Positions 37,241 to 38,875 of a DNA stretch of 64,000 bases are shown here, piece by piece. Position 1 is the first letter of the stretch, and each line of letters starts with the position of its first letter. A model generated the notes under the pieces. The model worked only from the letters and a program-made list of their open reading frames with translations, was not told where the DNA came from and searched no databases. This DNA is from an uncultured Verrucomicrobiae bacterium (lineage in GTDB: Bacteria; Chlamydiota; Chlamydiia; Chlamydiales; Rhabdochlamydiaceae): assembly GCA_963818965.1 (NCBI GenBank), contig CAWFUG010000011.1, forward strand, positions 128,001-192,000, read 5' to 3'. The position numbers were made by a program, and so were the translations under genes.

Positions 37241-38875
37241 ATGCATAAACAACCAATGAAAACAGCCTGTATACCCGACGTGACTCAAAAGTTGGCCATT
37301 GGCCCGCGCCAAAACCCCGCGATTGAGATTGCCGAAGAGGGGGGTAGTATTGCAGAAATACAACCCCCCTCTTCGGCAACTCAATCCCGGGAGTTTTCGC
37401 ATGGGGCCAATGGCCAACTTTTGAGTCACGTCGGGTATATAGCAACAGTCTTTTATTTGCTTTTCCACATGTGTGCGCTTAGGGGTGATATTCCTCCCTC
37501 GCTGCAAGGATTGTCTTACGGAATATACCCAACAAGTCTTACCTATAATACTGAACGTTTGAACTACAATAAACGCTTTGCCGTCTTTCCTCAGGCAATC
37601 TTTGCCCCTATGACAAATGATGAAGTCGTCTATGTCTTGACTCAATTGAAACAATATAACCTTCCTTTTGCAGTCCGATCTGGAGGTCATTGCTTTGAAC
37701 CGGGATCTCTATCTCCAGACTATGTGATCGATGTTTCGAATTTTAACGCCATTATACCCAATACAGTAACTGGAGAAGTTTATATCGGAGCAGGTTGTCT
37801 TCTCATGGATGTGCTGAATACCCTTGGTCTCATCGATTATGCTATCCCTTCCGGGGAATGCCCAACAGTCGGCATTACAGGGCTGACATTGGGAGGCGGC
37901 ATAGGATTGCTAACCCGCCCCTACGGCCTGACTTGCGATTCGGTAAAGAGCATTACTTTAGTAAATGCCGCATGCGAAGTGATCGAAGTGAATGCATCCA
38001 GCTATCCAGATCTATTTTGGGCTCTCCGTGGAGGAGGAAACGGATCTTATGGAATCGTGCTTGGCTTTACGTTTCAAATGCAATACATCCCCACGGTTAC
38101 GTACTATGAGCTTCTCTGGGAATACGATGTGGACCTGATCGATCCTTTGATGAAAGCCTGGCAATCCTGGGTGAGTACATTGCCCGATACGATTTCTTCG
38201 ATATTGGGAATCCGACATCCAGGGATTCTCACTGCATCACCTGGAACATCTCCAGCGCTCACGATTCGTGTATCTGGACTTAAGTTAGGCTCAGACCCTT
38301 TTACCGAATGGCAAAGTACTTTCTCTGGCTTTAATCCCACCGTTATTTTGTTCACAGGGAGTTACCTCGATTCCTCACAATATTGGGCAAGAGAGAGCAC
38401 AAAGCCTTTCAATAAGGCAAAGTCTAGAATTTTGATGAATCCCATCACTTCGAAAACGACAAAGAAGATAACCCAGTTTTTTAAAAAAATCGATGCGACC
38501 AATCCAGATTATACGGTTTATTTTGAATTCGATGCTTTAGGAGGCAAAACACCAGATAATCAAACCGCATTTTTCCCTCGTAATGCCTTCGGATGGTGGT
38601 ATCAGGCCTACTTTTGGGATTTTGAAGAAGAGACATCACAAATATTAGCGCTTAGCAGAAACTTTTTTGCAAACATTCCTAATGAAGTGTCCAATTACTG
38701 CTATGCAAATGTCGTCGATTACGACCTTGGAAAATATTATCTTTGGGCCTACTACGGCAATCTTGCAGGGCAGCTCATCAATATCAAGCAAAAATACGAT
38801 CCCGCAAATTTTTTTAACTGGCAACAAAGCATCCCCGTTATCAATTCCGTGCCAGGCAGTTTAATGGCTCAATAG
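37241..38875 (+). CDS. FAD-linked oxidase (berberine-bridge/AA7-like) with in-frame palindrome insertion
   Basis: RSGGH, GECPTVG..G..LGGG, DLFWALRGGG, Y.N, K.KYDP.N.F. Confidence 0.88.
   Translation: MHKQPMKTACIPDVTQKLAIGPRQNPAIEIAEEGGSIAEIQPPSSATQSREFSHGANGQLLSHVGYIATVFYLLFHMCALRGDIPPSLQGLSYGIYPTSLTYNTERLNYNKRFAVFPQAIFAPMTNDEVVYVLTQLKQYNLPFAVRSGGHCFEPGSLSPDYVIDVSNFNAIIPNTVTGEVYIGAGCLLMDVLNTLGLIDYAIPSGECPTVGITGLTLGGGIGLLTRPYGLTCDSVKSITLVNAACEVIEVNASSYPDLFWALRGGGNGSYGIVLGFTFQMQYIPTVTYYELLWEYDVDLIDPLMKAWQSWVSTLPDTISSILGIRHPGILTASPGTSPALTIRVSGLKLGSDPFTEWQSTFSGFNPTVILFTGSYLDSSQYWARESTKPFNKAKSRILMNPITSKTTKKITQFFKKIDATNPDYTVYFEFDALGGKTPDNQTAFFPRNAFGWWYQAYFWDFEEETSQILALSRNFFANIPNEVSNYCYANVVDYDLGKYYLWAYYGNLAGQLINIKQKYDPANFFNWQQSIPVINSVPGSLMAQ
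37270..37439. mobile_element. 170-bp palindromic MITE-like element, family A, inside a CDS
   Basis: 36-bp perfect terminal IR; inner IRs; TA at both ends; net 168 nt keeps the frame. Confidence 0.9.

Follow-up and report, generated by a model that had tools for sequence, protein, structure and literature searches.

A miniature inverted-repeat transposable element (MITE) of 166 bp, here called family A, was found inserted in frame in the putative export leader of a gene encoding a BBE-like FAD-linked oxidase. The gene lies in the window analyzed here, a stretch of 64,000 nucleotides (positions 128,001 to 192,000 of contig CAWFUG010000011.1) from the genome of an uncultured bacterium of the Rhabdochlamydiaceae (G000; 2.24 Mb in 12 contigs, 87.85% complete). 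Comparison with related genomes revealed that the element is mobile, that it duplicated a TA target, that it interrupts a conserved leader without closing the reading frame, and that such insertions recur in other genes and, in another genus, at this spot of the oxidase gene. The element is most probably a selfish hairpin MITE tolerated in the oxidase leader, comparable to the Rickettsia palindromic elements (RPEs) and not domesticated.

Analysis of the element revealed two nested pairs of inverted arms. A repeat search placed the outer arms at positions 37267 to 37305 and 37404 to 37442 (39 nt, 97% complementary, 98 nt apart). When the flanking TATA is counted, the perfect repeat amounts to 36 bp (37270 to 37305 and 37404 to 37439). 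The inner arms (37303 to 37351 and 37357 to 37405) are 49 nt long and 73% complementary, so that nearly the whole element would pair as one hairpin. The 32-nt core of the outer arms showed no mismatches on both strands, and two matches were obtained in 0 of 100 shuffles. The RNA of positions 37260 to 37450 was predicted to fold with -145.9 kcal/mol, compared with -54.9 +/- 4.5 kcal/mol for 200 shuffled sequences (z = -20). Together with the duplicated target, the element adds 168 nt, corresponding to 56 stop-free codons, to the open reading frame (ORF) at 37241 to 38875 (544 aa). The encoded peptide includes the segments IPDVTQKLAIGPR.. and ..GQLLSHVGY. A first-pass annotation, made from the sequence alone, had described an element of about 170 bp with 36-bp perfect inverted repeats that adds 56 codons without a stop, and this description holds for an element proper of 166 bp. 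Its statement that the opposite strand is also stop-free was borne out by an antisense ORF of 168 aa across the element (37184 to 37690), though this openness is a consequence of the palindrome. Three of the six frames of the window copy are stop-free, and its own coding content consists of the 56-codon read-throughs, without a transposase gene. BLAST located matches to the inner module (element positions 67 to 109) within other genes. A promoter and terminator scan of positions 36900 to 37700 returned one promoter-like site, located in the element, and one terminator-like site, which did not exceed the numbers in shuffled sequences. No Rfam family reached its gathering score, the best match, to a miRNA hairpin, scoring 36.7 bits where the threshold is 90. 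Its small size, terminal inverted repeats (TIRs), TA duplication, and many dispersed copies identify the element as a non-autonomous transposon.

The insertion site was found empty in a syntenic locus of another genus (L040, in genome G135), where the gene pom, encoding a Pom-type outer membrane protein, is likewise followed by the oxidase gene. The leader DNA at this locus reads ATG TAT AAC CAA CTG ATA AAA AAC ACT TGT ATA GGA ACC. It encodes MYNQLIKNTC IGTLFYLLFHMCALSG DIPP, with the site at MYNQLIKNTC|IGTLFYLLFHMCALSGDIPP, and the window residues MHKQPMKTAC align with MYNQLIKNTC. Alignment of the empty DNA (ACTTGTATAGGAACC) with the filled window DNA (CCTG-TA-[TACCC...166 bp...GGGTA]-TA-TAGCAAC) indicates duplication of a TA target and a net gain of 168 nt, which confirms the earlier statement that the net length is a multiple of three. 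The data would also fit, less symmetrically, a duplication of 4 bp (TATA) whose ends are offset. Removal of the 168 nt from the window gene gives ..MKTAC-IATVFYLLFHMCALRG-DIPP, which equals the empty site of L040. The first-pass annotation had proposed that deleting the insert restores a plausible leader and that an orthologue alignment should display the empty site; both expectations were verified, and the reconstructed leader is present in the orthologues.

Uninterrupted leaders were common among homologous oxidases. A protein cluster at 90% identity contained nine members, including the uninterrupted proteins P0126 (488 aa), P0128 (487 aa), P0124, and P0130. The other members were the window protein (544 aa with the element), the G061 protein from a second genus (514 aa), and the fragments P0125, P0127, and P0129. 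More distant uninterrupted homologs were P0002 (78% identity) and P0003 (75%). P0002, the closest uninterrupted homolog in an alignment of 22 sequences, begins MYSRKIKKLFIGGLFCLLIQACALSAQIPPSLQGL. The empty-site allele of L040 and these six uninterrupted proteins share the pattern M..K.., hydrophobic core, C(A/S)L.., (D)IPPSL, without an insert. The distribution of empty alleles argues against fixation of all copies at identical sites. An assembly artifact was rejected as the origin of the insert, given the presence of the element at 11 loci and an independent public record of the empty site. A search of Logan contigs from four DNA runs for positions 36900 to 38100 returned only short pieces, none of which spanned the insertion site. 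A search of RNA runs for positions 37000 to 38000 identified none that covers the locus. P0124 has another residue in place of the canonical start Met of the oxidase (..ILRYNQLIK..), and P0124 and P0130 have both been called with an upstream extension into the 3' end of pom, which is read in another frame. The position of the oxidase start thus seems evolutionarily unsettled.

The host gene encodes an oxidase with FAD_binding_4 (PF01565; E value, 1.2e-18; 67.5 bits) and BBE (PF08031; E value, 1.4e-9; 38.2 bits) domains, both above the cutoffs. Among 8000 candidates scored, 7530 homologs were obtained at E <= 0.001, and residues H150, C151, and C207 are invariant in the 22-sequence alignment. 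The leaders of distant homologs in this alignment end in ..AGA|IP, ..FSA|IP, ..LGA|IP, and ..LSA|IP. Judged by eye from the Sec-type features and cleavage sites of the empty-site alleles and the distant homologs, the N terminus of the oxidase appears to be a conserved export leader, with the element at the junction of the n-region and the hydrophobic core. An AlphaFold model based on the same alignment revealed residues 1 to 63 with a predicted local distance difference test (pLDDT) score of about 30 and without secondary structure, a helix at residues 58 to 81, and, beginning at about residue 85, an oxidase fold modeled with confidence; the mean pLDDT of the model was 72.8. No close orthologue was present among the first 30 relatives searched; a family-wide search found such orthologues, and the gene is patchy in the family, occurring in 4 of 129 genomes at E <= 1e-50.

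In total, 11 full copies of 164 to 166 bp were found in the window genome, running from TACCC to GGGTA (family ends, TACCC(G/A)A..GACTCAAAAGTTGG). TA flanks 10 of these copies on both sides; the copy at C8:152350 has an imprecise right end. Four full copies are 94 to 98% identical to the window copy, and three of them reach 97 to 98%. This high identity indicates that the burst was recent and that the insertion in the oxidase gene is young. A search for TIRs with up to five mismatches revealed 78 matches in several subfamilies, and a BLAST census with eight full copies as queries identified 100 related places (8.5 kb in total). Of 18 other genera in the family, 5 yielded related sequences, and the 12 genomes searched that represent other families of the order yielded none. 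Many deletion derivatives are present in the genome, including a recurrent 31-bp form (TATACCCAAGTGGACTCAAAAGTTGGGTATA) in which the short repeat TTGG forms the junction between one TIR and the opposite end, e.g., at C3:18125-18151, C11:153640-153666 (window positions 25640 to 25666), and C11:230553-230584. This form looks like a product of hairpin deletion, which suggests that the palindromes are unstable. A separate repeat of 1.8 kb or longer occurs three times with 99.5% identity (C4:1600-3400, C4:19450-21253, and C12:108947-110750). Two of its copies, in inverted orientation, occupy the ends of contig C4 (22 kb), and each copy begins with the 31-bp mini-element.

The search for a parent element in G000 revealed no TIR pair enclosing 0.7 to 3 kb and no IS630-type DDE_3 gene. 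A 1.2-kb insertion sequence (IS) with a DDE_Tnp_1 transposase was rejected as the parent, its ends being unrelated. A scan of Joint Genome Institute (JGI) metagenome contigs for the exact TIR identified one locus (L096), which carries another copy of the MITE and not the parent. This full copy of the 166-bp type (L096:1280-1447) lies near the 3' end of an ORF ending in ..LLINF, where the IP..TQKLA frame is again the one used, up to a stop; an IS110-type transposase gene is located 170 bp downstream.

Three of the 11 full copies are located within long ORFs, namely, those of the oxidase, recC, and a pepF-like M3 oligopeptidase. All three have the same orientation and frame and encode IPD(V/A)T(Q/E)KLAIGPRQNPAIEIAEEGGSI(A/E)EIQPPSSATQSREFS.G.NGQL..(H/R)VGY (56 to 58 aa). 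In the recC product (PF04257 and PF17946), the PF04257 match starts at profile position 26, directly after the insert, and nine recC orthologues are uninterrupted (..SN..LAE..LF..-FE.RLVVVPD). The pepF-like gene reads ..LNWNLNSFFPNYN[insert]SALKDVREK in G000 and is uninterrupted in its G063 orthologue (MKWNLDCFLPLSVEKSIRSL). The orthologues thus reveal that both inserts interrupt conserved N-terminal coding sequence. The element-bearing proteins in public records are 544, 638, and 1039 aa long. ORFs of at least 150 codons span 26 of the 100 places of the census. A Pfam scan covered 20 of these 26 ORFs, and three others were scanned separately, with L089 to L091 left out. Pfam families were found in 10 of the 20, including 5-enolpyruvylshikimate-3-phosphate (EPSP) synthase, tRNA U5-methyltransferase, MenC, SulP, Lon, and a leucine-rich repeat (LRR) protein. 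The Pfam match of EPSP synthase (aroA) falls into two stretches around the in-frame element. Most of the genic copies with a Pfam hit belong to a sister family that has other TIRs (..RPVRNCEFE...KFAIPDRAGY) and shares the inner hairpin. Sister copies at C11:117969-118071 (L087, just outside the window), C11:123080-123169 (L088), and C8:411555-411644 (L077) occupy in-frame positions midway through EPSP synthase, within a TRAM/U5 tRNA methyltransferase, and within MenC. A mini-copy in front of a 2-oxoglutarate (2OG) oxygenase gene likewise has an open frame, but it is followed by a normal leader with its own Met; here the openness across a 5' region seems to be due to chance. Among 5.8 billion proteins searched for longer proteins with the 56-aa peptide, 2 of 13 candidates carried it, the pepF-like protein of G000 and one JGI protein, and absence from such a search is weak evidence. 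The JGI protein (P0122, 669 aa, hypothetical) contains the inner element peptide at residues ~123 to 155 (..RQSPAIEIVERGGSIAEIQPPLSATQSRDLL.., 62% identity) without TIR parts and is possibly an old in-frame relic in another organism. The proposal of an RPE-like in-frame element in this lineage is thus supported by the full copies in recC and the pepF-like gene and by the sister family in aroA, menC, and sulP.

An insertion at nearly the same position was revealed in the oxidase gene of G061 (P0001, 100% match). The site reads ACT-TA-[TGCCGAAGATGATTCAAAAGTTGGGAATT...AATTCCCAACTTTAGAATCATTTTCGGTA]-TA-TATAGGA. The inserted palindrome of 76 bp adds a net 78 nt (26 codons) in frame. It occupies a TA 2 nt upstream of the TA used in the window, in another phase and with the other open TIR frame (YAEDDSKVGNW...). 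Both of its arms share the same differences from the window TIR, which indicates that it belongs to another TIR subfamily. Because target TA, phase, and subfamily all differ, two independent events are the only simple reading of the two inserts. The search for further good copies of this element in G061 returned none; of its six matches, those elsewhere did not exceed 36 nt, and the window family is represented in G061 by TIR-like remnants of 34 to 35 nt only. A tree of nine oxidase orthologues was a polytomy except for the pair P0128 and G135 (91/95) and does not resolve the order of insertion. The oxidases of G000 and G061, assigned to different genera in the catalogue, are 92% identical in protein and 93% in DNA, with a synonymous divergence (dS) of 0.235, and identity is as low as 50% in the N-terminal parts of their RecC proteins (L049 and L048). 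Possible explanations are a transfer of the pom-oxidase block between lineages and a rapid evolution of recC.

The coordinates of the features in the window are summarized in Table 1.

Table 1. Positions of the element, its target, the interrupted oxidase gene, and adjacent features in the window
Feature	Position	Strand	Remark
Palindromic MITE (family A), 166 bp	37272..37437	.	Reads IPDVTQKLAIGPRQNPAIEIAEEGGSIAEIQPPSSATQSREFSHGANGQLLSHVGY in the oxidase frame
Left TIR, TACCCGACGTGACTCAAAAGTTGGCCATTGGCCC	37272..37305	+	
Right TIR	37404..37437	-	
Inner GC-rich hairpin module	37303..37405	.	Common to the second element family of the same genome
Target TA, left copy	37270..37271	.	From empty-site comparison with L040
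Target TA, right copy	37438..37439	.	From empty-site comparison with L040
Start and first 10 codons, MHKQPMKTAC (putative leader n-region)	37241..37271	+	Second in-frame ATG at 37256
Putative leader hydrophobic core and c-region, IATVFYLLFHMCALRG	37439..37486	+	Predicted cleavage before DIPP
In-frame ATG (Met77), rival start downstream of the element	37469..37471	+	Product would be without the hydrophobic core
Mature BBE-like FAD-linked oxidase (predicted)	37487..38875	+	Pfam PF01565 and PF08031
Pom-type outer membrane protein gene, upstream neighbor	36260..37222	+	Pfam PF17251, E value of 1.7e-28
Truncated copy, ~63 bp, sister TIR subfamily TACCCAAGTGGACTCAAAAGTTGG	36159..36221	-	Between a lipoprotein gene and pom

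The gene pom is also located upstream of the oxidase gene in G135 and G061 (L040 and L042), and the downstream neighbor in the window is a GH3 hydrolase gene. The Pom domain is in keeping with an environmental chlamydial family as the source of the window.

These findings suggest the following course of events. The MITE inserts at TA, usually within TATA, and duplicates the TA. One copy jumped into the TATA of codons 10 and 11, where the n-region of the putative Sec-type leader meets the hydrophobic core. The ORF survived because 168 nt is a multiple of three and the landing frame is one of the three stop-free frames. We infer that translation still begins at the ATG at 37241, the start used in the public annotation of the window genome, where the exact 544-aa protein is on record, and that it reads through the element and yields a leader of 82 residues. 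The 56 extra residues would form an unstructured, slightly acidic extension before an intact hydrophobic core and cleavage region. They would be discarded with the leader when it is cleaved before DIPP during export. Only the leader before the hydrophobic core would be lengthened, which may explain why the element is tolerated. Recurrence at this spot would likewise follow from a TATA target at a position where extra residues are harmless. The first-pass annotation had spoken of a protein-remodeling element. Its in-frame addition of a peptide stood, and the term remodeling is probably overstated, since cleavage of the leader at ALRG|D would leave the mature enzyme unchanged. The main cost would concern the RNA, whose helix of about 80 bp (-146 kcal/mol), beginning 29 nt after the start codon, should slow ribosomes and would also be a plausible substrate for a double-strand-specific RNase, so that an effect on expression is conceivable.

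Several observations weigh against a filled allele that functions in this manner. The window allele alone has lost ~23 nt before the ATG, including GAGAGAAC, which is kept by G061 and G135, and divergence in its first 10 codons exceeds that of the remaining gene. Both features would fit relaxed selection on the upstream start. The insert contains six acidic and three basic residues, and, counted by eye, no positive charge lies within 12 residues of the hydrophobic core, an unfavorable layout for a leader of the Sec type. Downstream of the hairpin, the reading frame contains an ATG (37469) and TTG codons. In a near-identical strain (European Nucleotide Archive assembly), the oxidase was called from MCALRG.., and frameshifts were found (P0125 and P0127), which may reflect decay or assembly errors. 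The lack of a parent transposase with matching ends is a further such point, though the parent may be unassembled in a genome of this completeness. The ratio of nonsynonymous to synonymous divergence (dN/dS), calculated for the part downstream of the insert, was 0.142 for G000-G061 (dS, 0.235), 0.131 for G000-G135 (dS, 0.417), and 0.134 for G061-G135 (dS, 0.294). The oxidase is therefore under purifying selection in the G000, G061, and G135 lineages. As the insertion is much younger than the branch, the low ratio mostly reflects history before the insertion and cannot vouch for the filled allele.

The deletion of the purine-rich stretch before the upstream ATG, which is confined to the window allele, the ATG and TTG codons after the element, the -146 kcal/mol hairpin 29 nt into the ORF, and the MCALRG start chosen by the gene caller for P0125 would be accounted for if the element now lay in the 5' untranslated region and translation started downstream, at the ATG at 37469 or at a TTG (37421 or 37457), with the open frame as a leftover. 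The 2OG-oxygenase mini-copy demonstrates that open frames across elements can arise by chance. The product would lack the leader wholly or partly and would stay in the cytoplasm, or, if TTG 37421 were used, it might be exported with a shortened leader. Such a start is unlikely. No Shine-Dalgarno-like sequence is visible before 37469, and a product starting at Met77 would lose the hydrophobic core that every homolog has kept. Met77 is not a conserved start, since it is present in three of eight alleles (window, P0125, and G135) and missing in the other five (P0001, P0124, P0126, P0128, and P0130), all of which have Thr. The older G061 insert is in frame without a Met downstream of it, the residue corresponding to Met77 being Thr. 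Conserved residues upstream of the element have been kept in recC and the pepF-like gene, so that read-through is the simplest reading for the element family.

The diverged first codons and upstream region, the frameshifts in the near-identical strain, and the patchy occurrence of the gene (4 of 129 family genomes at the threshold given above) might also reflect an allele that the insertion has silenced, by a translation block, RNA cleavage, or failed export. In that case, the ORF would be intact only because the event is young, as the 97 to 98% identity of the copy to three others suggests. We regard silencing as quite unlikely, because the independent G061 insert stands in a full-length gene with a dN/dS of ~0.14, because elements of this kind are in frame in genes that are unlikely to be dispensable (aroA, recC, and lon), and because the frameshifts of P0125 and P0127 may be assembly errors.

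The opposite outcome would be an insert that has been co-opted, with the lengthened leader or the hairpin of its RNA controlling how the oxidase is exported or expressed, e.g., as an extended signal peptide region, an RNA thermometer, or a processing site. In-frame inserts at the same spot in two genera, the common frame of all three genic full copies, and a length that, with the duplication, is a multiple of three would agree with such a function. The common frame carries little weight, as its chance is 1 in 9 when three of six frames are open. Co-option appears highly improbable in view of the five of eight close alleles that do well without the insert, the near identity of the insert to intergenic copies, which leaves no gene-specific adaptation, the different peptides that the window and G061 inserts encode in their different frames, and the predicted disorder of the insert region.

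Tolerance of a selfish element thus remains the preferred reading. A more far-reaching reading, which we regard as rather doubtful, would be that chlamydial palindromic elements have evolved to survive in genes, that the junction of n-region and hydrophobic core is a permissive position, and that the 82-residue leader works and tunes export or expression of the oxidase. Gene survival of this kind would be favored by TIRs that are open in two of three frames, by the preference for TATA targets, and by the length that, with the duplication, is a multiple of three. If elements of this type do survive in genes and the long leader works, leaders would be a place where bacteria absorb, and perhaps later exploit, mobile DNA.

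No report of in-frame palindromic elements or MITEs in Chlamydiae was found in the literature outside subscription journals. In a review of MITEs, the string "chlamyd" occurs 0 times (PMC10969869). In its passages on RPEs, that review only suggests that RPE-like in-frame insertion may occur outside Rickettsia (PMC10969869). What appears to be new is that the element occupies a putative signal peptide, that a clean empty counterpart exists, and that another genus was hit independently at a distance of 2 bp.

Palindromes that code for protein in frame have been regarded as peculiar to Rickettsia, and the chlamydial family represents a probably unrelated case in another phylum of intracellular bacteria. 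Its documentation is unusually good and comprises the empty site, a TA duplication proven against it, copies of young age, and another, independent insertion at a distance of 2 bp. The case offers a natural experiment on the amount of added sequence that a signal peptide can accommodate. Annotation is affected as well, with inconsistent calls at such loci (544 aa with the element, 272 aa from an internal Met, and starts extended upstream).

The Correia elements of Neisseria (CREE/NEMIS) are MITEs of ~100 to 160 bp with long TIRs beginning TATA.., TA duplication, and long hairpins, and their transcripts are reportedly cut by RNase III. The chlamydial element resembles them in size, in its long TIRs starting with TATA, in the TA duplication, and in the transcript hairpin, and the RNase cost proposed above is of the same kind. 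Most Correia elements lie between genes, and their effects concern promoters and the stability of mRNA; they are not characterized by regular in-frame insertion in genes. The chlamydial family has a different TIR sequence and includes in-frame copies in genes. Extended signal peptide regions of autotransporters give leaders of 50 to 60 or more residues, which have a long N-terminal extension and are still exportable. They indicate that a leader of 82 residues is not absurd. The autotransporter extension is conserved, positively charged, and has a role in targeting, whereas the extension of the oxidase is repeat derived, acidic, and recent.

Intragenic ERIC sequences, QMITE1 of Coxiella, and MITEs of Anabaena contain open frames and can form in-frame fusions with host ORFs, according to the part of the review that deals with them (PMC10969869). 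These are other families in other hosts, and that part mentions no signal peptide case (PMC10969869). RPEs, as outlined in the review's passages on them, are short palindromic repeats (~150 bp) found in frame in unrelated genes, and nearly half of the copies in R. conorii are reported in ORFs (PMC10969869). The chlamydial element resembles RPEs as a short palindrome in an obligate intracellular host that inserts in frame and adds a conserved peptide without loss of the ORF, and 3 of its 11 full copies lie in ORFs; the comparison concerns behavior and not sequence. It differs in its Chlamydiota host, in its clear TIRs of 34 to 36 bp, and in a TA duplication proven by an empty site. It also differs in that the insert in the chlamydial oxidase is located in a putatively cleavable leader and not in the mature protein.

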